A DNA stretch of 11,692 nt from a virus (IMGVR_UViG_2563366980_000001), one strand, 5' to 3'. Shown: positions 411-10,103, counted from the first letter of the stretch. Made by a program: numbers and translations. Notes: a model not told the origin generated them from the sequence alone.

Positions 411-438
411 ATTTAACATAATATACATTATGCGCACC
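411..438 (-). other. dif: dif chromosome-dimer resolution site (XerC/XerD target); left boundary of integrated element
   Basis: Plus strand reads ATTTAACATAATATACATTATGCGCACC. Its reverse complement is GGTGCGCATAATGTATATTATGTTAAAT, an exact 28/28 match to the canonical E. coli dif (XerC arm, 6-bp central region, XerD arm). Confidence 0.9.
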
Positions 439-1309
439 AATGGTAAGGATGGCAGAATCTGGCGGGAATCGTTGACACTGGCCGTCAACTGGCTACTATC
501 GACAGTGATTCAAAATCATCCGTTTCTCCAAACGAATCAGAATCAAATGTCTGTCAGCAGTAAGTGAACGGCCTGACCTCACCAATCAGGCCTGTTCATC
601 CAGTTAGTTGGTAAATCTGTACCTGATACACGAGAATCAAACACCACTTCTTCAGTGCCATCACCATGATGCCGGATAATCTGGTAACCGGATTGCGGGT
701 TCTGGCTCTCAGCTTCATAAGCAGCCCGGAATGCTGGATCTTTGAGAAGCATCACTTTCAGCTCCTGATGTGTCATGAATTTTTCCATGATAAGCCCCGA
801 TGAATGCTGCCGCGCCGAATCAGCCATAACGCTGAAAATGGAAACTGTACGGCTTGGCCAACCCCGGACAGCAACAAAACAAGTTTTGTCACTGACCGGC
901 GTTATCTTTCAAAACAGACAGTTAACGATTTTTTGTCTGGTGTTTATGCGTGAAATTTCGTACGTACGAAATTCACCACCAATAAACAAACGGACGATGA
1001 CTGACCGGAAAAGCAATGCCGTCAGCATCATGACCACGCATTACCTGATTGAGAAGCCTTCTGACTTCACGGCGCTCAGGCCTGGTCATCATCATATTGC
1101 GATACCAGGACGGCGATTTATCAAACCATCTGGCACAACTGGCAAAATGTGAACCTACACGACGATAAGACTTAAGGCGGCCACCGGGAAGTCGGTCACG
1201 CGCCTTATTTTTTACAGACATAATAAATCCTCTAAGTAACTGAATACCTAGAAGATGTCGTACTGTTCATACCCCATAAAAGTTAACGCCATAATAAAAA
1301 TCCATACAA

Positions 1310-2554
1310 TCAGTTCAGGTTGTCCCGGAACAGTTCACCGCTCCTCGCGGCGCTGCGGGGCGTCGCCCTGCTCCGGTCAACCTTTCTGACCTGAAGCATC
1401 ACCATAATATCAGTCTTGTTGCTTTCACTGGTACGGGAACCGAAGAAGCTCCAGCCGGAACTGGCCTTACTGTCTTTCTGTTCAGCAAGGCCACCAAGTA
1501 AAATAATATCACCATCTGCAAGGCTGACTTCGGTTGTTACATCACGCTTGATAAGGGTTGGCGAGTTATTGACGCCGGTTTCAGTGGTCACAAAGTTGGA
1601 AAGCTGCTGCTGAATCTTGAGATCCATTGTCCGACTTTTGATTGATGGCGTTACGTTAAACAAAACACCGCTGGAACGATATTCAACGGATTGCGTGGTC
1701 GTATTGTTATTCACCGTAACACTGCCCAGTACTGGCACATCAGAGCCGACTGAAAAAGACGCTGAGGCATTATTTTTTACCCGCAGTCGTGGCGCACTGA
1801 CAACAGTAAAACGACTGTCGGTTTTAAGCAGATTGAAAATGGCATCAATGGAGCCGGTTCGAATATTGATAAAATTATCCAGTCCGGCAGCACCAACTGA
1901 AATATTGAATTTATCAGACAGAATTTTAGCCGCTAAAAGAATGCCGGAGCCGTCAGACTGCGAGGTCTGAACCTCAAAAACATAACCAGAAACAACCACT
2001 TCATCACTCATCGTATCCAGCGAAGTGACCAGTGTTTTCAGGATGGCGATATCCTCTTTCGTACCATAATAAACCAGAATATCACCGGTTCGATTGATGT
2101 AGTTGCTTGCCCCTGATGAACCTTTTAGCGAATCGTCAGAAATCACGGCTCCACTGTTATTGAAGGAGCCTGAAACGTAGCCGCCAAGAATATCAGACAG
2201 GTAGGCAACAGAACGGTACTGAGGCGTATAAGTCCATGTATAACGTGGCTTAACCGGCTCTTTCGGCGTATAGGGCGCGATAAAATCAACACCCTTTTTC
2301 GTCCATATTCGAATGTTCATATTGCCAAGATAACGGGTTACAAATTCCCGTTCATCAATATCAGGTGTTAACCTGAATGTAATCATTCGTTCATCATTAA
2401 CAAGCTGTGGATCTAGCATATACGGGACTTTAAGCACCTCACTATAAATAAGAGAAATAGCCTCCGGTAGCTTGACTTTATTTAATTCAAGCTCTGACCC
2501 TGCGAAAGCACATGAAGAAAATAGTAGCGTTAATGCGAGTAAAATCTTTTTCAT
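1310..2554 (-). CDS. pIV-like secretin (filamentous phage export channel), 414 aa
   Basis: N-terminal signal peptide MKKILLALTLLFSSCAFA. Size and position (last gene of the assembly module, directly after the pI-like gene with a TAATG stop/start overlap at 2554) match gene IV of Ff-type phages. SD-like GGGGAA lies upstream. C-terminal region is Gly/Ser/Val-rich as in secretin domains. Confidence 0.75.
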   Translation of the reverse strand: MKKILLALTLLFSSCAFAGSELELNKVKLPEAISLIYSEVLKVPYMLDPQLVNDERMITFRLTPDIDEREFVTRYLGNMNIRIWTKKGVDFIAPYTPKEPVKPRYTWTYTPQYRSVAYLSDILGGYVSGSFNNSGAVISDDSLKGSSGASNYINRTGDILVYYGTKEDIAILKTLVTSLDTMSDEVVVSGYVFEVQTSQSDGSGILLAAKILSDKFNISVGAAGLDNFINIRTGSIDAIFNLLKTDSRFTVVSAPRLRVKNNASASFSVGSDVPVLGSVTVNNNTTTQSVEYRSSGVLFNVTPSIKSRTMDLKIQQQLSNFVTTETGVNNSPTLIKRDVTTEVSLADGDIILLGGLAEQKDSKASSGWSFFGSRTSESNKTDIMVMLQVRKVDRSRATPRSAARSGELFRDNLN

Positions 2555-3579
2555 TATTTTTTCCCCGTATAAAGCGTCACACGCTCACCATCAATAATTC
2601 CGCTCATCAACATCCCTTTGTAATTAAAACTGGATGCAGGAACGGCACGCAAAACACCGGCACCGTTAACAAGAATCACAAACGCCCTGCCTTCACTGGT
2701 CATTCTCCCTGATATACGCCACTCGGTTGAAAGTGGCGGTTCAGCTGGTTCTGAGGGAGTATCTGGTGCTGGAGTAGCAGCGGAAGAACGAAACATGGCC
2801 GCATCACGTACATCTGTTGTAGCCAAATCTGGCGAGGGATCGCTTCGGCCAAACGTGCTGAAAAATGAGTAAATCAGCCAGCCTGACCCGATAAACATCA
2901 ATGGAAAAAGCACAAGAAAGAACCTGACTTTGCCAGAATTCCAGATGCTCTGGCGTTTATCTGTCTGCTTTTCATTACCGTTATTTCCTTCATAGCTTTT
3001 ATAAAGTTCAAAAATATCAGGGTTATATTTATTGCGATAACTGGTGACGAGGTTGCTTTTATAGATTTTGTGGCCTGAATATACGTCAATGCAGTAATGA
3101 TTATTCAGGCCCAACGCTTTCAGCTTGCGCATCCGGTAAGTTGTTTCTATTTTGTCTTTCAGAAAGCGAGCAATATTAGAAAGTGACTGATTTACAATAA
3201 CCAAATCACAGCTAATACCCGTTTCAGGGTGCGTAAAATGACGATGTTCAGCAATAAATGATTTCTTCTCAGCCGTCATATCCTTATCGCTACCGAAGAT
3301 TCTCCATGCTTCATCAATAACAATTAAATCACCAAACTGGCAAAAGCTCCCTTCCCCACCTTTAAAAGGAAAGAAATCTGTTTTAAGCACATCATCATTA
3401 TCCACAACAATAATTTCTCCCGTTGCATCAGGATAACGTTCGGTGATTTTATCTTTTTGTAAACCATAAATGTTCGTCACAACTCTCCGGCCGCTGGTAA
3501 ATGCAGGAATAATGACATTGCAAACGGCTTCATAACTTTTTCCTGAGCCGGGTATGCCAATATATGCAGAAATAGCCAT
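2554..3579 (-). CDS. pI / Zot-like phage assembly NTPase, 341 aa
   Basis: N-terminal Walker A motif GIPGSGKS at residues 8-15 (MAISAYIGIPGSGKSYEAV), typical of gene I and Zot proteins. Internal hydrophobic segment FFLVLFPLMFIGSGWLIYSFF consistent with the single transmembrane helix of pI. SD-like GGGTGAG upstream of ATG. Confidence 0.85.
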   Translation of the reverse strand: MAISAYIGIPGSGKSYEAVCNVIIPAFTSGRRVVTNIYGLQKDKITERYPDATGEIIVVDNDDVLKTDFFPFKGGEGSFCQFGDLIVIDEAWRIFGSDKDMTAEKKSFIAEHRHFTHPETGISCDLVIVNQSLSNIARFLKDKIETTYRMRKLKALGLNNHYCIDVYSGHKIYKSNLVTSYRNKYNPDIFELYKSYEGNNGNEKQTDKRQSIWNSGKVRFFLVLFPLMFIGSGWLIYSFFSTFGRSDPSPDLATTDVRDAAMFRSSAATPAPDTPSEPAEPPLSTEWRISGRMTSEGRAFVILVNGAGVLRAVPASSFNYKGMLMSGIIDGERVTLYTGKK

Positions 3580-3582
3580 AAC

Positions 3583-3870
3583 TCACCCTATAACAGGAAT
3601 ACGTCGAATAATAAAACGAGTAGCCATTGCGGAGATAATCATACTAATCCCCTGTGGTAATTTACTCAGATTAATGAAGTACCAGAATCCGTCTGATAAA
3701 TTGGCAAACAGCGATGAGAGATTGCTTGAATCTGGCAGTAACTCAACAAGGATTTCAACGAAGCCCTGGACTACAAAATACAGCGCAAAGAATACGACGA
3801 ATTTAATAATCAATGACCGGAATACAAAACCTAACAAAGTATTTAATGCACTAATCAGAATCCCAAACAT
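3583..3870 (-). CDS. pVI-like minor coat / membrane protein, 95 aa
   Basis: Highly hydrophobic 95-aa product. Sits between the pIII-like and pI-like genes as gene VI does in Ff phages. AAGGAG SD 8 nt upstream of ATG. Confidence 0.6.
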   Translation of the reverse strand: MFGILISALNTLLGFVFRSLIIKFVVFFALYFVVQGFVEILVELLPDSSNLSSLFANLSDGFWYFINLSKLPQGISMIISAMATRFIIRRIPVIG

Positions 3871-3882
3871 AGTTGCACTCCT

Positions 3883-5595
3883 TTAGGCACTCAGAATAAT
3901 ACGGAGCGCAACAAATCCCCATATAATCAGAAATATGGTTTCTACGGCGCCTCTGTTCTGCTCAATTAACGGACAATGGGAGTCAATTCTGTACTGGTGA
4001 TTAAACACGCTGAATTCAACAACGGGGCAGGATGCTGAACGAGAGCCGATGTTAAATTCGTTTGTAAAAGGCAACAAGTTAATAATTGGCGTTAAAATAT
4101 CTCTTGCCGTTGGCGTTTCTTCAAGCTCAGGCTCTTTTACACCGGGATCTTCTCCCAAAGCTATATTGCCATTATTTCCAGTGTCAGACCCTGAGTTGTT
4201 ATTAATGGTAATATCAATATTGACGTCAGCCCCTGCACTGTCAGATACAGGTGAAAGCATATCTAATAACGTTGGAGATAGCCTAAGTTCCGACATCGCA
4301 GAAGTTACTTCAGCCGGTGAAACCTCTTTAAACGGTAAGCCGTTATAATCGGCATTAACGGCAGCTTCAGACCACAGCTCGTTAATCATGTCGGCAAGAA
4401 GTGCTGGCGATACACTAACACTATCAAGATACTCCAGATAATCAATCATGGACTCAATATTTCCGGCCTCCAGTACTTCCGTCATGGCTTTATATTTGGT
4501 ATTGGTCCAGATAGTAAGCTCACTCTTTTCATCAATATCTTTTGCGGTGTAATCCTCTTTTTCAGGAACGGCGCAAATCGTCGAATATCCACCATTTGAC
4601 TGATTAGTCGTTTTACAAGGCGTGTTGTGATACTGATATTGCTTGCCTGCTGTTAAATAAGCAACGCTGTAATACATGGGAAGCCCTGCTACATTTTCAT
4701 ACATGGGAATACCTGCGGGAAATGAAGATGCGGACGGGTTGCTATACAAGTGTGTAATCTCAGGTATTTCATAAAATGAGGAAGGATAAGTAAACTTATA
4801 ATTATGTTCAGTAAAGGATACATCTCCATTACTGTTGACAACTTTATTCGTCACAGTGCGTTCAAAATTCGTTAGTGTTTCAGTATAAGTACGCGAGTTA
4901 TAGTCATTAAGATAATTTCTGGCAATTTCAGTTGGATTATCACCATAGTAATAAATTAGCTCTTTCGAATCCTGATAATAATAAAGCGCATTATCTGGCG
5001 TGGAATATCCTGTTTCAACACCTACAACTGGAGAACCCGCATCCACATTATTACGACTAACATGAAGGATTACCGGACTTAATTCCTGTGGTTCAAAATT
5101 AACGGTTATCGTCTTACTTTCACCACTTTGACCACTGTACGTTACTTCATATAAATTATCGGAAATCTTTTTACCGTTAGTCATTACCATTACCGAGCCG
5201 TCAGATGAACTCAAAGAAGACGGAACAAAAGATGATACAGCAGCAGCAATACCCGCCCACGTTGCAACACCGCTCATTTTGTATGATGAGGCAGCAGGCA
5301 AGTATTCGGCAGCATTAGCCGCAGCGCGGCCAACAAAAACACGGGTTGCTGTAAGCTGTGATGCCGTATAAATCGCATCATTGGCAGCAAAGCGACGAAC
5401 AAGCACCCGGCCAACGACTTTAGGAATAACAGCCCGCGCAGCCACTGCTGCAATTGCTGGTACAAATGAATATGAATATCGGGGAAAGGAAACCCAGAGA
5501 AAGGAAAAAATAAAGGAATAAACCGTCAGCCTCTTAGCCCAAGAATAACGACATAAGCTGAGACGATCCCCCATAAAAGGGAACCCAATTTCCAT
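3883..5595 (-). CDS. pIII-like adsorption / minor coat protein, 570 aa (start uncertain)
   Basis: Largest ORF of the structural module, directly after the major coat gene and its terminator. Tyr/Asn/Ser-rich central region, Gly/Ser/Asn linker-like stretches and a C-terminal hydrophobic anchor (ETIFLIIWGFVALRIILSA) as in pIII C-domains. GGAGA SD 7-9 nt upstream of ATG at 5595. The first ~106 residues are atypical, and a signal-peptide-like segment begins at the internal Met (codon 107, near 5277). Confidence 0.65.
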   Translation of the reverse strand: MEIGFPFMGDRLSLCRYSWAKRLTVYSFIFSFLWVSFPRYSYSFVPAIAAVAARAVIPKVVGRVLVRRFAANDAIYTASQLTATRVFVGRAAANAAEYLPAASSYKMSGVATWAGIAAAVSSFVPSSLSSSDGSVMVMTNGKKISDNLYEVTYSGQSGESKTITVNFEPQELSPVILHVSRNNVDAGSPVVGVETGYSTPDNALYYYQDSKELIYYYGDNPTEIARNYLNDYNSRTYTETLTNFERTVTNKVVNSNGDVSFTEHNYKFTYPSSFYEIPEITHLYSNPSASSFPAGIPMYENVAGLPMYYSVAYLTAGKQYQYHNTPCKTTNQSNGGYSTICAVPEKEDYTAKDIDEKSELTIWTNTKYKAMTEVLEAGNIESMIDYLEYLDSVSVSPALLADMINELWSEAAVNADYNGLPFKEVSPAEVTSAMSELRLSPTLLDMLSPVSDSAGADVNIDITINNNSGSDTGNNGNIALGEDPGVKEPELEETPTARDILTPIINLLPFTNEFNIGSRSASCPVVEFSVFNHQYRIDSHCPLIEQNRGAVETIFLIIWGFVALRIILSA

Positions 5596-5620
5596 AATTC
5601 AATCTCCATAATAACCTCAA

Positions 5621-5646
5621 GTAAAACGGGCGATATTGCATCGCCC
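5621..5646 (-). terminator. Rho-independent terminator after the major coat gene
   Basis: On the minus strand: GGGCGAT-GCAAT-ATCGCCC (7-bp perfect stem, 5-nt loop) followed by GTTTTAC. Lies 14 nt downstream of the coat gene stop, analogous to the strong terminator after gene VIII in Ff phages. Confidence 0.6.
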
Positions 5647-5659
5647 ATGAATAATGAAT

Positions 5660-5893
5660 TTATGCGGATTTAACGGTACGCAATACCCAGCGAACGCCAG
5701 CGACACCGGCATAAAGTGTTACCAGTGAAGCAGCAACGGCCATAATCGCAACCAGAACTGTACTGAAATCAATGCTGTTCGTCAGCGGCGATAAATCAAC
5801 ACCACTTGATGCCGCTCCTTCTGCAGCGAAAGTCGCGCCAGAAACAGCCATTAATGCAGGTACAGCCAGAAAACTAACGATTTTTTTAAACAT
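5660..5893 (-). CDS. pVIII-like major coat protein precursor, 77 aa
   Basis: Classic architecture: signal peptide MFKKIVSFLAVPALMAVSGATFA, acidic N-terminus of the mature part (AEGAASSGVDLS), hydrophobic core, basic C-terminus (RWVLRTVKSA). GGAGA SD upstream. Confidence 0.8.
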   Translation of the reverse strand: MFKKIVSFLAVPALMAVSGATFAAEGAASSGVDLSPLTNSIDFSTVLVAIMAVAASLVTLYAGVAGVRWVLRTVKSA

Positions 5894-5927
5894 AACTCTA
5901 TCTCCATTACATTTTAAAGGTTCGCAT

Positions 5928-6179
5928 TCAAGCAGTACGAACCATCTTTATTACCTGTCCCACACCTACAGAAAAAAGCCAGAGCAGCAGGACAGAGCCA
6001 AAACCTAATGTCCAGTAATTTCCCATTGCAGAATAATCAATTTGATGAAATGGTTCAGAACGTACCATTATTGCCTGACATTCTTTTGCATTGTTCGCAT
6101 TACATAAATAACCTTCAATACGGTAACCATTTTCAGGAATATGATTATCAAACTGAATATCGAAACCTGATGTATCCAT
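5928..6179 (-). CDS. small hypothetical protein with C-terminal transmembrane helix (possible minor coat protein), 83 aa
   Basis: Tightly packed between the ssDNA-binding and coat genes (start 6179, upstream stop 6182-6184). AAGG SD-like upstream. C-terminal hydrophobic helix WTLGFGSVLLLWLFSVGVGQVI. Function inferred from position only. Confidence 0.45.
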   Translation of the reverse strand: MDTSGFDIQFDNHIPENGYRIEGYLCNANNAKECQAIMVRSEPFHQIDYSAMGNYWTLGFGSVLLLWLFSVGVGQVIKMVRTA

Positions 6180-6181
6180 AA

Positions 6182-6499
6182 TCAGCCTTTTATTTCAGTA
6201 ATGCCGCCATCTGATGAAATGTTATAAGTTACTCCTTCCCTCCCCTCCATTGACCAGACGCGAACATATACAGGTATCTGGACTAACTTACCGATAAAAT
6301 TATTTGCCTGATTCATTACACCGGCATTAACAAGAGCCTGAGATACACGAATAATAATCTGGTCTTGCTTAGTGCCACCAAAACCATCAGGAATCTCTAA
6401 GCCAACACCAATTTCATTATAGTATCCCTGACCATTGACCTTATTACGCTGGCGAGCACCAAGCATTTTACCTTTTACAAAAAGACCATAATTAGACAT
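6182..6499 (-). CDS. pV-like ssDNA-binding protein (putative), 105 aa
   Basis: Immediately downstream of the replication gene with a strong SD (AAAGGAGAGTGATAT-ATG). Small Gly-rich basic protein at the position occupied by gene V or RstB in filamentous phages. Functional call is positional. Confidence 0.55.
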   Translation of the reverse strand: MSNYGLFVKGKMLGARQRNKVNGQGYYNEIGVGLEIPDGFGGTKQDQIIIRVSQALVNAGVMNQANNFIGKLVQIPVYVRVWSMEGREGVTYNISSDGGITEIKG

Positions 6500-6510
6500 A
6501 TCACTCTCCT

Positions 6511-7563
6511 TTAATGCCAGTTACTGGCATGTGAAATACGGTTATAATCGAAAATTAAACCTTTCTCATAAACCCATGATGGAATTTTGGCTGGTTTGGC
6601 TTCAAGAGTACGAACCAACGGAACAACGTTATTAGAATCCGGTGACTCACAATAAAAGTTAATATCTATTCCGAAAGAAAGTAATTCTTTACGGTGTCGG
6701 TAGAATGTAGGTTTCGGTAACATCTCTTTCATGTTCGCGCCCTGCTTCCACAATAAATATGTAGACTGTATTTTTCTTGGGAGATTAATTATTTTTTCAT
6801 CAGTTAATATGGTATTTTGATTCATTTCTATTCTCCCTACATAGTCAGAGAATAATTTATTGGGCGTCTCAATATTCCAGCTATTACCAAGCGTAAGATT
6901 CAAATCAATTAATTCAGTTGTTCTTAATGTTAATTCAATGCGTAATTTATCTTTTGACCAGTCCAGTAAACCAGCTTTAACGAATTCGTCTGCCATCTGG
7001 TGCCCTTTTTTGCCAGATGTATGCTCATCATATTTTGAATAAAATTTCAGGCTCCAACGACGGGAGTTTTTCCCTAAGTAAACAGTGCCACCTTTACCAC
7101 AGGCGCGACCGTGGCGAGTTTTAGCTTTAAATTCTGCGGCATATAACCATGCGCGGACATTTTCTAATGTTGACAATGAATACATGTAATTGATATCGAT
7201 GCGCGAGATCTTAAATTGCCCTTCCATGACCTGCCGATAGGATGGTAGATCATGAGGAATATGCAGTAATGCCAATATTCTGGCGTAAGCTGTTAACACC
7301 AACCCTTGCAAATCGTCGGAACCGATAACAGAGTGACCTTGCAAAAACTTTGATGGATTACCGTCAATGTAGAGATGTGTTGCCCGACCTTCACCATCAG
7401 ATCCAACAGACCTTACTTTCATTGTGGACTCATGCGAACCGCGAACTGTCAACCGTTTTACTGTTTCCCACTCCACTGCACCGTCAGCATTGACGCTGAC
7501 GACACTACCAGCCGGTAACGGTCGGTGTGTGCAAGGCAGGATTCCGGTAAACCAGTCGATCAT
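6511..7563 (-). CDS. Rolling-circle replication initiation protein (pII / RstA-like), 350 aa
   Basis: First gene of the minus-strand phage operon, divergent from the repressor gene. Size and position match filamentous-phage replication initiators. Family assignment from gene order and overall character, not a verified motif. Confidence 0.7.
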   Translation of the reverse strand: MIDWFTGILPCTHRPLPAGSVVSVNADGAVEWETVKRLTVRGSHESTMKVRSVGSDGEGRATHLYIDGNPSKFLQGHSVIGSDDLQGLVLTAYARILALLHIPHDLPSYRQVMEGQFKISRIDINYMYSLSTLENVRAWLYAAEFKAKTRHGRACGKGGTVYLGKNSRRWSLKFYSKYDEHTSGKKGHQMADEFVKAGLLDWSKDKLRIELTLRTTELIDLNLTLGNSWNIETPNKLFSDYVGRIEMNQNTILTDEKIINLPRKIQSTYLLWKQGANMKEMLPKPTFYRHRKELLSFGIDINFYCESPDSNNVVPLVRTLEAKPAKIPSWVYEKGLIFDYNRISHASNWH

Positions 7564-7734
7564 AAGTAGTCACACCCATCAAAATATGTGTCAATAGTCA
7601 TTTGTGAGCAGATTGAATGGTCACAATGTAATATGCTCAGATCTGACAGTCAATACATTTGCAATGTTTAAATTGTCAGAAATGAGCATCAAATCTAACT
7701 ATTGAAAAACCACTGTTAAGATGGAGCCAAGTAG
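7564..7734. promoter_or_regulatory. Divergent promoter/operator region between replication gene and repressor gene
   Basis: 171-bp AT-rich intergenic region between divergent start codons. Contains the perfect palindrome TCAGATCTGA (7637-7646), TGTGA-N12-TCACA (7604-7625), direct repeats of GTCAATA (7590-7596, 7649-7655) and repeated TGAGCA/TGCTCA half-sites (7605-7610, 7633-7638, 7683-7688). GGAG SD at 7723-7726 precedes the repressor ATG. Confidence 0.55.
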
Positions 7735-8181
7735 ATGGGCAACAATGAGCATGAAGTTATGGCGGACAAACAGAGAGCAGAACGTATCAAAAAGGTAATT
7801 CTGGAACACTCGACTTATGAAGAACTGGCCGAGAAGACTGGCATTAGCGTGAGTACGCTGGTCAGGATAGCGTCCGGCAAAACTGAACCTAAATTCAGTG
7901 ACATCATTCAGATAGCTAAAATTACTGGTGCAGACTTAAACACCTTAGCTTATGGCTATGCTCTTGATGTTAAAGAAGAAGCTACCGAGCGGAAGCTAAT
8001 CACTTCTGCGGATGGATATACTGATGAAGAAACCACTAACGCACATAATTTCATCGTGTGGAACATCAGGACACTGGAAAAACAAGATATTCTGGCACTC
8101 GCAAGGCAGGTTTCTGCCTTAAGTTCATACACTTACAGTACTAAAATGTTTATGAAAAAAGCGGTGTCTGGAGAAGAGTAA
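7735..8181 (+). CDS. XRE-family helix-turn-helix transcriptional regulator (putative prophage repressor), 148 aa
   Basis: HTH signature TYEELAEKTGISVSTLVRIASGK near the N-terminus. Divergent from the replication gene, as rstR is from rstA in CTXphi-type phages. SD GGAG 8 nt upstream. An alternative start at the internal Met (codon 9) is possible. Confidence 0.85.
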   Translation: MGNNEHEVMADKQRAERIKKVILEHSTYEELAEKTGISVSTLVRIASGKTEPKFSDIIQIAKITGADLNTLAYGYALDVKEEATERKLITSADGYTDEETTNAHNFIVWNIRTLEKQDILALARQVSALSSYTYSTKMFMKKAVSGEE

Positions 8182-8192
8182 AAGGATTAACA

Positions 8193-8245
8193 GTCTCAGG
8201 AATGAGACAAACGTGCAGTATTACCAACACTGCACGTTCTTTATT
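8193..8245 (+). terminator. Tandem hairpins after the repressor gene, the second a rho-independent terminator
   Basis: GTCTCA-GGAA-TGAGAC (8193-8208), then ACGTGCAGT-ATTACCAAC-ACTGCACGT (9-bp perfect stem, 8211-8237) followed by TCTTTATT. Confidence 0.6.
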
Positions 8246-8280
8246 GCGCGAATTTTGAACAGTGAAAAAGGATCAAAAGG

Positions 8281-8703
8281 ATGAGTAGAAATAACGAAAC
8301 AAGCGGCGTTGAACTGGTTGTCGTGGGCATATTTGCTTTCTGTCTGGCAGTTGTTGCCTGGCTAATGAAAACTTTCGATGTTGAATGGCAAACAGCTCTG
8401 GAAACTGCGCCTAGCCTGATAGTCTGGCTGCTTGTTGTTGGGGCGGGGATCTTTTTCGGGATCAAAATGGAAACAGGTCTTGTTCGCTGGGGTGCTCCAC
8501 TGGCGATTGCCCTTCTGATTCCGGTATTCAAACCAATCCTTAAGGAAGCTGCCGGAGTACGTGAAACGGGTGGATTGGTTTTCGATGATATGGTTTCGTG
8601 GTATGGAACTGGCTGGGGAATGTCGTTGATGTTTTTCGGAATTCTTATCATCGGATACGGGCTGCTTTATTGGTGGCACAGAAGAAATTCATATCACTGG
8701 TAA
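8281..8703 (+). CDS. hypothetical integral membrane protein with four predicted TM helices, 140 aa (cargo gene 1)
   Basis: Four hydrophobic segments of about 18-20 residues (VELVVVGIFAFCLAVVAWL, LIVWLLVVGAGIFFGI, WGAPLAIALLIPVF, MSLMFFGILIIGYGLLYWW). AAAAAGGA/AAAGG SD-like sequence just upstream of ATG. Not part of the canonical filamentous-phage gene set. No family recognised. Confidence 0.6.
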   Translation: MSRNNETSGVELVVVGIFAFCLAVVAWLMKTFDVEWQTALETAPSLIVWLLVVGAGIFFGIKMETGLVRWGAPLAIALLIPVFKPILKEAAGVRETGGLVFDDMVSWYGTGWGMSLMFFGILIIGYGLLYWWHRRNSYHW

Positions 8704-8707
8704 TTTC

Positions 8708-8729
8708 AAACCGTGGGAAACCACGGTTT
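8708..8729 (+). other. Perfect stem-loop with GAAA tetraloop between the two cargo genes
   Basis: AAACCGTGG-GAAA-CCACGGTTT (9-bp perfect stem) starting 5 nt after the stop of cargo gene 1. No downstream U-tract, so not a canonical intrinsic terminator. Confidence 0.45.
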
Positions 8730-8795
8730 AATAAGAGGAAACTGAACCCTATCAGTTCCACAATGGAAAAATTGTGCTGCAAACAACTTACTTAA

Positions 8796-9920
8796 TTGGA
8801 TATCAACCAAATGAATGCACTTCTAGGGAAAATTGCAGGAGCAGTAGCAACCTTCTTTGTTGCTCTTATTTTGAATAAATTTTTTTCAACATTTCGTATT
8901 AGACAACTTTACTTAGCATATGAACATATATTAGAGCACACAACACAAAGCATAACTGGATATACAGTCATGTTCACAGTTACGAACAAAGGAAAAGAGA
9001 AAGAAAAAAACGTAACCATTACAATACCAAAAAGCAAGTCGATATCTCTTATCTCAGCTAATAATGTTAGCATTGAATGTAAAGATAACAAAATAATCAT
9101 TGACCGCATCCTGCCAAAGGAAAATATTACTTTGATTGTTTTGGTTAAAAATGGTGGCGTTCTATCGAAGTCTAACTTACCAATATTGAAATCTGAAGAT
9201 GCTAATGGAAAGTGTTATGACAGCATAAAGAAAATACCACCTAGCCTTGGCCCTGCTTTCTTCAGCTTTTCATTGTTTATTGCATTTTTAGTATTAATGG
9301 GAGGAGCCATATACAAAGGTTACGATCCCTTTGAAGTAACATATACGCAATATTTCAAAATGAGATTCACTCCTTTCTATGATAGAGGTTTTGAAAATAA
9401 TTCATTCCAAAATAACTCCCTTACAAAACAATATGATACATCAAAATCAGACTTCCCGATTGATCTAAAGAGTCTTAATGTGAAGGATGGGAAAATCGAG
9501 TATGTTTTCATTATTGATAATAAAACCAACTATAACCTTAGTGCGGACATGAAATTTATAGTTAGAGATGAAAACCAATATTATGATGAGTTGGGAAAAG
9601 TATTGAACATTAGGAATGACGCTGATAGACGTCAAGCTTTACACGAACTAAGAGATAAATATCATGTTGCTGAAGATACTACAGGTGCTACATATTCAAT
9701 AAGTGAATGGATTGATAAGGGACAAAGAAAAGAAATAAAAATGACTCGCCAGTTGTCGAAAGGCATCGATTATAAGGATCTCGGTGTTGATATAAGGATA
9801 AGGAATGATGCAAATGATGATAATTATTACGGCGACTATCAATTTAAACCGGAACGCTCAGCAATAGCTAAAAATAAATTGGATGCAGCAATTGCTACTC
9901 AACGTTTTCCGTTGAAATAG
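8796..9920 (+). CDS. hypothetical membrane-anchored protein, 374 aa, AT-rich (cargo gene 2)
   Basis: Long ORF in markedly AT-rich DNA with Lys/Asn/Ile/Asp-rich product. Predicted N-terminal TM helix (residues ~9-30) and a second hydrophobic helix (~152-172), a beta-rich region between them and a ~200-aa hydrophilic C-terminal domain. The first codon at 8796 is TTG; the first ATG is at 8811 (MNALLGK...). Neither has a strong SD. Followed by a strong terminator. No family recognised. Confidence 0.65.
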   Translation: MDINQMNALLGKIAGAVATFFVALILNKFFSTFRIRQLYLAYEHILEHTTQSITGYTVMFTVTNKGKEKEKNVTITIPKSKSISLISANNVSIECKDNKIIIDRILPKENITLIVLVKNGGVLSKSNLPILKSEDANGKCYDSIKKIPPSLGPAFFSFSLFIAFLVLMGGAIYKGYDPFEVTYTQYFKMRFTPFYDRGFENNSFQNNSLTKQYDTSKSDFPIDLKSLNVKDGKIEYVFIIDNKTNYNLSADMKFIVRDENQYYDELGKVLNIRNDADRRQALHELRDKYHVAEDTTGATYSISEWIDKGQRKEIKMTRQLSKGIDYKDLGVDIRIRNDANDDNYYGDYQFKPERSAIAKNKLDAAIATQRFPLK

Positions 9921-9959
9921 TTGAGATTTTTGGTTCGCACAATGACGTTATGCTAAAGA

Positions 9960-9995
9960 GGCCGCTGCGGGATTCGATTTTCGCAGCGGCCTTTT
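9960..9995 (+). terminator. Rho-independent terminator ending the cargo operon
   Basis: GGCCGCTGCG-(12-nt loop)-CGCAGCGGCC, a 10-bp perfect GC-rich stem (9960-9969 / 9982-9991) followed by TTTT (9992-9995). Begins 40 nt after the stop of the 374-aa ORF. Confidence 0.8.
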
Positions 9996-10025
9996 CAACA
10001 TAACGAGTCGTACATTATGCGCACC
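9993..10025 (-). other. dif-like hybrid attachment site (right prophage junction)
   Basis: Minus strand reads GGTGCGCATAA-TGTACGACTCG-TTATGTTGAAA. The XerC arm is 11/11 identical to dif, the spacer is 11 bp instead of 6, and the XerD-like arm matches TTATGTTAAAT at 9/11. Same orientation as the canonical dif at 411-438. About 78 bp from the hipA stop. Confidence 0.7.
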
Positions 10026-10103
10026 AACATAAACCAAGGGAGAATCCAGTCGTTGGCGGTTCATGATTGTTCTGCTCATTAACAACGACCAAAACCCCAT
10101 ATC

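Follow-up and report, generated by a model that had tools for sequence, protein, structure and literature searches.

The right dif-like junction of the CUS-1/YpfPhi-type prophage of E. coli UTI89 is probably half of a folded single-strand attachment site

In Escherichia coli UTI89, a filamentous prophage is bordered at one end by a perfect dif site and at the other by a hybrid, where an exact XerC arm is followed by an 11-bp spacer, a displaced XerD-like arm and a GC-rich hairpin. What kind of attachment site leaves such a junction behind, and does the hairpin belong to this site or to the genes next to it? The original prediction read the junction as a duplex att site of its own, with the hairpin as the terminator of the cargo operon. 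We examined both points on the window, that is, the whole analysed stretch of 11,692 nucleotides, and on relatives collected through the Rep protein.

The whole window is 100% identical to E. coli UTI89 (NC_007946.1, 1652577-1664268). In this genome the RefSeq annotation places a single-copy filamentous prophage of about 9.6 kb at dif, adjoining hipBA. Judged by its sequence, the insert is a CUS-1/YpfPhi-type filamentous prophage of O18:K1:H7 strains. CUS-1 was reportedly first described by Gonzalez et al. 2002. Queried with the whole window, megablast found no match in the GenBank phage collection, and no Rfam family reaches the gathering score anywhere in the window. The genes, assigned from the RefSeq annotation together with Pfam and PHROG scans, are as follows.

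439-10014, minus strand: CUS-1/YpfPhi-type prophage, with a unit length of about 9,586-9,587 bp (tandem repeat period in NU14)
579-827 and 973-1221, minus strand: two small ORFs
1310-2554, minus strand: secretin pIV
2554-3579, minus strand: Zot/pI
3583-3870, minus strand: DUF2523 minor coat protein
3883-5595, minus strand: pIII-like protein
5660-5893, minus strand: major coat protein
5928-6179, minus strand: membrane protein
6182-6499, minus strand: G5P ssDNA-binding protein
6511-7563, minus strand: Rep pII (Rep II/X family)
7735-8181, plus strand: HTH repressor, divergent from rep
8281-8703 (140 aa) and 8796-9920 (374 aa), plus strand: cargo ORFs

No integrase or recombinase gene is present in the element according to the RefSeq annotation and the Pfam and PHROG scans, which return only inovirus replication, coat and assembly proteins, the HTH repressor and orphan ORFs. 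In all likelihood the prophage is an integrase-less mobile element that uses the XerC and XerD of its host (IMEX), of the CTXphi type. As for the orphans, the two cargo ORFs and the two small ORFs have no match in Pfam or NCBIfam, and the sole PADLOC match among the four is a marginal JetB for 973-1221 (E = 0.004). PHROGs of unknown function match both cargo ORFs (phrog_4174 and phrog_17621) and 579-827, while 973-1221 matches no PHROG. Between rep on the minus strand and the repressor on the plus strand lies a divergent intergenic region of 170 bp (7564-7734), with promoter-like hexamers on the minus strand. By analogy with ig-2 of CTXphi, this is presumably the regulatory and origin region.

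Two reviews list CUS-1 and YpfPhi as CTX-type elements (PMC4246890, PMC3089051). The window holds this element, and integration at dif and the att module are common to CUS-1 and YpfPhi (CUS-2, Yersinia pestis). The Y. pestis prophage (L004) is 99.4% identical to the window over 424-8261. For the adjoining 8262-9929, about 1.7 kb with the two cargo ORFs, BLAST finds no match at all in YpfPhi. This cargo is specific to CUS-1, and YpfPhi has about 0.8 kb of unrelated sequence in its place; that the two differ here, beside the att module, was already noted for orf1/orf1a of CUS-1 (PMC4266046).

The elements of the two junctions, in terms of position and strand, are listed below.

411-438, minus strand: intact dif, matching the E. 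coli dif at 28/28 positions, ATTTAACATAA TATACA TTATGCGCACC
411-421, 422-427 and 428-438: XerD arm, centre and XerC arm of this dif
9930-10027, minus strand of the window, which is the phage (+) strand: whole attP(+) module, a 98-nt forked hairpin (predicted DNA fold)
9932-9958, plus strand: attP2-like site, with GGTTCGCACAA (XerC-like, 9/11), TGACG (5-nt centre) and TTATGCTAAAG (XerD-like, 9/11)
9959-9992: apical stem-loop of the folded attP(+), with a 10-bp GC stem GGCCGCTGCG/CGCAGCGGCC (9961-9970/9983-9992) and a 12-nt loop
9993-10025, minus strand: attP1-like hybrid site, with XerD-like arm, 11-nt centre and chromosomal XerC arm

The left site is thus the perfect dif that had been predicted, and the same site is found in NU14 and in the empty site of K-12. 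At the right junction, the XerC arm TTATGCGCACC is exact at 10015-10025. The empty site of K-12 continues after dif with AATATAAACCAAGG, which matches the window from 10026; therefore the sequence from 10015 rightwards is chromosomal, and the arm does sit on the chromosome side as proposed. The XerD-like arm TTTCAACATAA at 9993-10003 (the reverse complement of TTATGTTGAAA) agrees with the XerD arm at 9/11 positions. The spacer between the two arms, 10004-10014, is the 11-bp sequence CGAGTCGTACA (TGTACGACTCG on the minus strand). An alternative parse with a 6-bp centre puts the XerD arm ACATAACGAGT at 9998-10008, where only 5/11 positions agree by manual count. It was rejected, the 11-nt spacing being conserved in relatives, and the predicted displacement of the best XerD match to 11 bp holds.

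We searched for dif-like sites with up to 4 arm mismatches and spacers of 4-13 nt. The window has 3 of them, against 0.02 per shuffled window. A second canonical dif just outside the window, raised with the original prediction as a case against it, does not appear, since there is no further dif-like site within 3 kb on either side (L001).

The tandem prophages of NU14 provide the phage side of the comparison. At the junction between two copies (L002 13922-14015) the attachment region of the phage is intact and is followed by AATGGTAAGG, the same sequence that follows dif at 439. There the attP1-like site reads GGTGCGCATAA-TGTACGACTCG-TTATGTTGAAA, again with an 11-nt centre. In UTI89 the outer XerC arm of the module is the chromosomal one, and the intact attP is visible at the NU14 tandem junction.

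The site at 9932-9958 comes out of the same mismatch searches that bear out the right junction. It is inverted relative to the junction, lies 34 nt away from it, and the GC hairpin stands between both sites. From shuffled windows, the chance expectation of a partner within 150 nt and in the required orientation is about 1e-4. The stretch originally delimited, 9960-10025, contains all the features described for it, but cuts off this inverted partner, which changes the reading of the junction.

Folded as single-stranded DNA, 9930-10027 has a predicted energy of -30.5 kcal/mol on the minus strand (z = -6.8), and of -27.9 kcal/mol on the plus strand. In the predicted layout, the XerC arms pair with each other and so do the XerD arms, with a bulged centre between them and the GC stem at the apex; within the centre, two pairs are expected beside each arm, around a bulge of 7 nt on one side and 1 nt on the other. 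The same fold is predicted in 17 related sequences. The gene-sense strand folds better than its complement in 15 of these 17, the exceptions being one tie and the Y. pestis chromosomal hybrid, and in close relatives the advantage of the (+) over the (-) strand is about 2-3 kcal/mol. The arms differ from each other mostly by transitions, which appear as G·T wobbles in the gene-sense strand and as A·C mismatches in its complement (32 versus 12, counts that are not phylogenetically independent). The hybrid site is very probably one half of a folded single-strand attachment site, and not a duplex att site standing alone.

The two-site design recurs among the relatives, in Y. pestis (with an identical module), Photorhabdus, Brenneria alni, Klebsiella spallanzanii and many IMG/VR contigs. 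The Brenneria alni contig is terminally redundant, hence circular. These relatives have one site with a centre of 9-11 nt, an apical hairpin, and an inverted site with a centre of 5-6 nt. Three divergent contigs (L005, L006 and L032) have unrelated, longer apical hairpins and keep the overall fold. In BLAST against the window, 9930-10027 stands out as an isolated conserved island of 98 bp, with exactly the same coordinates in five relatives. Its identity is 98-100% in YpfPhi (L004), 99% in L033, 96% in Photorhabdus (L010), 90% in L031 and 86% in Brenneria (L007). The borders of the island fall two bases beyond each XerC arm.

Covariation was assessed on an alignment of 10 distinct close variants. 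For the proposed structure, 93.6% of cells are paired and 5 pairs are compensatory, values that none of 500 shuffles reached. Slid controls, with the partner columns shifted by 1-3 positions, have 30-50% of cells paired. The compensatory double changes comprise a T-A to A-T swap in the XerD arms (1), changes in the XerC arms (1) and changes in the apical stem (3), the latter including GC/CG swaps in Brenneria. Taken from sequences that are 86-100% identical in the module, with compensatory counts coming mostly from one lineage (Brenneria, L031), this covariation is modest.

Where the exchange took place can be read from the arms. The left and right sites share TACATTATGCGCACCAA and diverge after TGTA, where dif has TGTATA and the phage TGTACG. 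Thus only the XerC side of the centre is homologous to dif: TGTA, and then CG in the phage (TGTACGACTCG) against TA in dif. All centre variants among the relatives begin with TGT, as the dif centre does. The XerC arm at the hybrid junction varies with the host, being GGTGCACATAA in Y. pestis, AGTGCGCATAA in L005, L016, L019 and L033, and AGTACGCATAA in L017. The centre and XerD arm of the same junction are unchanged in the closest relatives, Y. pestis included. At tandem junctions and at the intact-dif end, the arm is that of the phage, GGTGCGCATAA. Single prophages in L005 and L033 differ between their ends in the XerC arm (AGTGCGCATAA at the hybrid and GGTGCGCATAA on the intact-dif side), which amounts to arm swapping. 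The host-dependence of the XerC arm at the hybrid junction places the exchange at the border between XerC arm and centre; this maps its position and not its chemistry. It also follows, under the XerC-exchange model, that the left dif has its XerC arm from the phage, and that the chromosome's own original arm is the one at 10015-10025.

In terms of strand, the top strand that XerC would cleave (5'-GGTGCGCATAA^TGTACG) is the same strand as that of the phage structural genes. The (+) strands of filamentous phages are typically T-rich, and the gene-sense strand of this prophage has 31% T. From gene sense and T-richness, we infer that the packaged (+) strand is the gene-sense strand. The orientation of the prophage is the one that insertion of a (+) single strand through one XerC exchange would produce.

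The hairpin can now be considered. It had been described as the terminator of the cargo operon, physically coupled to the recombination site through its T-tract. The overlap itself is there: the hairpin lies directly against the XerD-like arm, whose outer end is the hairpin's TTTT tail. On its sequence, the T-tract is simply what the AAA(A) at the outer end of this arm looks like on the opposite strand. The assignment to the cargo operon does not hold. The hairpin is kept with the att module while the cargo of YpfPhi has been replaced, and therefore it is part of the attachment site and not of the cargo operon. A consensus terminator scan does not call the hairpin at 9961-9992, which has a 12-nt loop and only 4 T after it. 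It does share with intrinsic terminators a GC-rich stem, a short T run, and a place downstream of a stop codon and between convergent operons; what sets it apart is the 12-nt loop, the four T, a T run that coincides with the end of the XerD arm, and the fact that it co-varies and travels with the att module. A terminator role is not what conserves the hairpin, and such a role in addition is possible.

This additional role can be put more precisely. The folded attP would hold as described, and in the duplex replicative form and in the prophage the apical hairpin would also act as a bidirectional intrinsic terminator. The repressor and cargo operon on the plus strand and the long phage operon on the minus strand converge here in the circular genome. 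As RNA, the hairpin is predicted to be strong on both strands (-38.7 and -41.6 kcal/mol), with an A-run, stem and T-run layout in both directions, and close relatives show no variation in the A-run that follows the XerD arm. Against this, the hairpin does not pass the consensus scan, with a 12-nt loop followed by 4 U on the plus strand or UCUUU on the minus strand, the T and A runs are already accounted for as the outer ends of the XerD arms, and divergent relatives have different apical hairpins, that of L006 being without a T-run. We regard the double function as a tentative addition to the folded-attP explanation.

Among known systems, CTXphi is the closest in mechanism. Its attP1 has a 12-nt centre and its attP2 a centre of 5-7 nt; the two are inverted, about 90 nt apart, and neither works as a duplex (PMC4246890, PMC3089051). 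As summarised in these reviews, the (+) ssDNA adopts the form of a forked hairpin of about 150 nt, XerC recombines it with dif, and replication completes the reaction, which is irreversible because duplex DNA no longer contains the folded site (PMC4246890, PMC3089051; Val et al. 2005, Das et al. 2010). The same reviews, in their account of Val et al. 2005, state that the attP regions of CUS-1 and YpfPhi show features for direct integration of ssDNA (PMC4246890, PMC3089051).

The present locus resembles CTXphi in having two inverted dif-like sites, of which the first has a long centre (11 nt here, 12 nt in CTXphi) and the second a short one (5 nt here, 5-7 nt in CTXphi), and in the pairing of the (+) ssDNA into a forked hairpin, which is predicted here. 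Homology to the dif centre is found only beside the XerC arm (TGT) in both cases. The G·T wobbles occur at position 2 of the XerC arm and position 8 of the XerD arm, as in the published attP1 and attP2 arms of CTXphi. [quoted passage not shown] The module is more compact than that of CTXphi, its sites being 34 nt apart and its total length about 98 nt (about 90 nt and about 150 nt in CTXphi), and its arms match the enterobacterial dif and not that of Vibrio. The mechanism of CTXphi is experimental, whereas that of CUS-1/YpfPhi is proposed. Also in agreement with published CTX-type elements, the cargo lies on the XerD-arm side, as the original prediction had read from the geometry, and the left site, an intact dif, is expected to be the working dif of the cell (PMC4246890, PMC3089051).

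The junction could also be the remnant of a single duplex attP like that of VGJphi, in which the odd spacer alone permits XerC and blocks XerD, and the hairpin is a cargo-operon terminator that happens to abut the site. The exact XerC arm, the 11-bp spacer and the 9/11 XerD-like arm are all real, and VGJphi is likewise a filamentous phage at dif with, by analogy, an XerC-catalysed exchange and centre homology on the XerC side only. The hairpin, 41 nt past the stop codon of ORF 8796-9920, gives a strong RNA hairpin followed by UUUU. However, VGJphi has a single 29-bp duplex attP, integrates as dsDNA and can be excised through two compatible flanking sites (PMC4246890). Here the conserved inverted partner 34 nt away pairs along both arms. 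In place of a 6-8 bp centre with compatible, excision-competent flanks there is an 11-nt centre, and the flanks are a perfect dif and the 11-bp-centre hybrid. The equivalent attP1 of CTXphi (12 bp) is reported as unsuitable for Xer-mediated integration in duplex form (PMC4246890), and the hairpin, without a call in the terminator scan, remains part of the att module where the cargo has been exchanged. A VGJ-type site is therefore unlikely. Of the earlier claim on the spacer, an XerC-only exchange with XerD excluded agrees with the one-sided homology to dif; the inverted partner at 9932-9958 argues against a stand-alone duplex site with its spacer as the only cause of stability.

An even less probable origin, which we consider highly improbable, is integration of the TLCphi type, with duplex DNA, an XerD-first exchange promoted by a phage Xer activation factor, and a degenerate XerD arm. 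The imperfect and displaced XerD-like arm is superficially similar to the TLC attP sites, which have no proper XerD arm. The centre differs from dif on the XerD side, the wrong one for an XerD-first reaction, and the inverted two-site architecture is not a TLC feature. None of the scanned ORFs matches a XafT-like protein (DUF3653), and the remaining ORFs are annotated as standard inovirus proteins.

To the CTX-type explanation with a folded attP(+), taken as a whole, we assign a probability of roughly 0.85. In this explanation the phage genome brings two inverted dif-like sites, 34 nt apart, with centres of 11 and 5 nt. In the packaged (+) strand the two would anneal into the 98-nt forked hairpin, which would be the real attachment site, attP(+). 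It would offer a duplex XerC arm, a bulged centre (7 nt versus 1 nt), a duplex XerD arm and the GC apical stem. XerC would then cleave between the arm and TGT on both attP(+) and dif, and the shared TGT(A) would stabilise the exchanged strand. XerD would be unable to finish the reaction because the bases on the XerD side of the centre differ, and the pseudo-Holliday junction would become a prophage through replication. The product would be what the window contains: to the 3' side of the phage, the perfect dif at 411-438, made of the phage XerC arm and the chromosomal centre and XerD arm. The other side would be left with two inert dif-like sequences, the attP2-like 9932-9958 and the hybrid attP1-like 9993-10025. 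Integration would be stable because the folded attP(+) is absent from duplex prophage DNA, and the spacer of one site would not be the sole cause. Anatomy, predicted fold, conservation, covariation, host-dependent arm swapping and strand orientation come from the loci compared here; for CUS-1, we infer XerC-only catalysis, the ssDNA substrate, resolution by replication and irreversibility from CTXphi.

One published observation counts against this explanation. YpfPhi, in which the XerC/XerD sites form an inverted pair, the prophage ends on its 3' side with an intact dif and the copies stand in tandem, is reported to superinfect preferentially between those copies, at the 'imperfect dif' junction (PMC4266046). 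The classical CTX model does not predict this. A further and rather doubtful proposal is that the duplex hybrid junction (XerC arm and TGTA) serves as a target for further folded (+) strands, and that the apical hairpin, as a bidirectional terminator, insulates the convergent operons. If this were true, insertion at the duplex junction would explain the preference of YpfPhi for superinfection between tandem copies, and a single 98-nt module would serve both ssDNA recombination and dsDNA transcription control.

With regard to what this locus adds, the feature is already known, both in kind and for the CUS-1/YpfPhi family, and there is little new biology in it. Under the folded-attP reading, the non-canonical spacer would be the signature of a folded single-strand attachment site, and predictions about binding, excision and stability would belong to the 98-nt hairpin and not to the 33-bp duplex. 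The pattern of an exact XerC arm, 9-12 nt, an XerD-like arm, a hairpin and an inverted dif-like site is a reliable annotation flag for CTX-type elements in Enterobacterales, and it is kept even where the cargo genes differ.

As for copy number, 115 complete E. coli genomes out of 5,426 contain the rep gene, the median among them being 2 copies and the maximum 5. NU14 (L002 4401-23601) has two tandem prophage copies, with one gene frameshifted in the second, while the near-identical strain UTI89 has one. The Y. pestis prophage is also in tandem, and tandem arrays are likewise found in CTXphi. If phage production follows the rolling-circle model of CTXphi, the single copy of UTI89 may not suffice for phage release.

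A weak dif-like motif, TGTTTGCATAA-11 nt-TTGTTTTAAAT, with 5 arm mismatches, is shared by many relatives of about 86% Rep identity, always at one internal position (for example L035 3378-3410 and L036 6630-6662), and the window does not have it. It is probably a conserved coding stretch rather than a site.

Finally, in L008 a further element of about 3.4 kb (4811-8257) lies between the hipA flank and the CUS-like prophage, bounded by the dif-like site AGTGCGCATAA TGTGTTGA ACATGTTAAAT with 8-nt spacing. Its five largest ORFs have no match in Pfam. From this arrangement, the locus looks like an array of two Xer-exploiting elements. L006 and L008 are labelled as Aerococcus and Candidatus Nanosynbacter metagenome-assembled genomes despite carrying an enterobacterial phage, and L008 bears a hipA-like flank and an E. 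coli-type dif; the labels are probably due to mis-binning.
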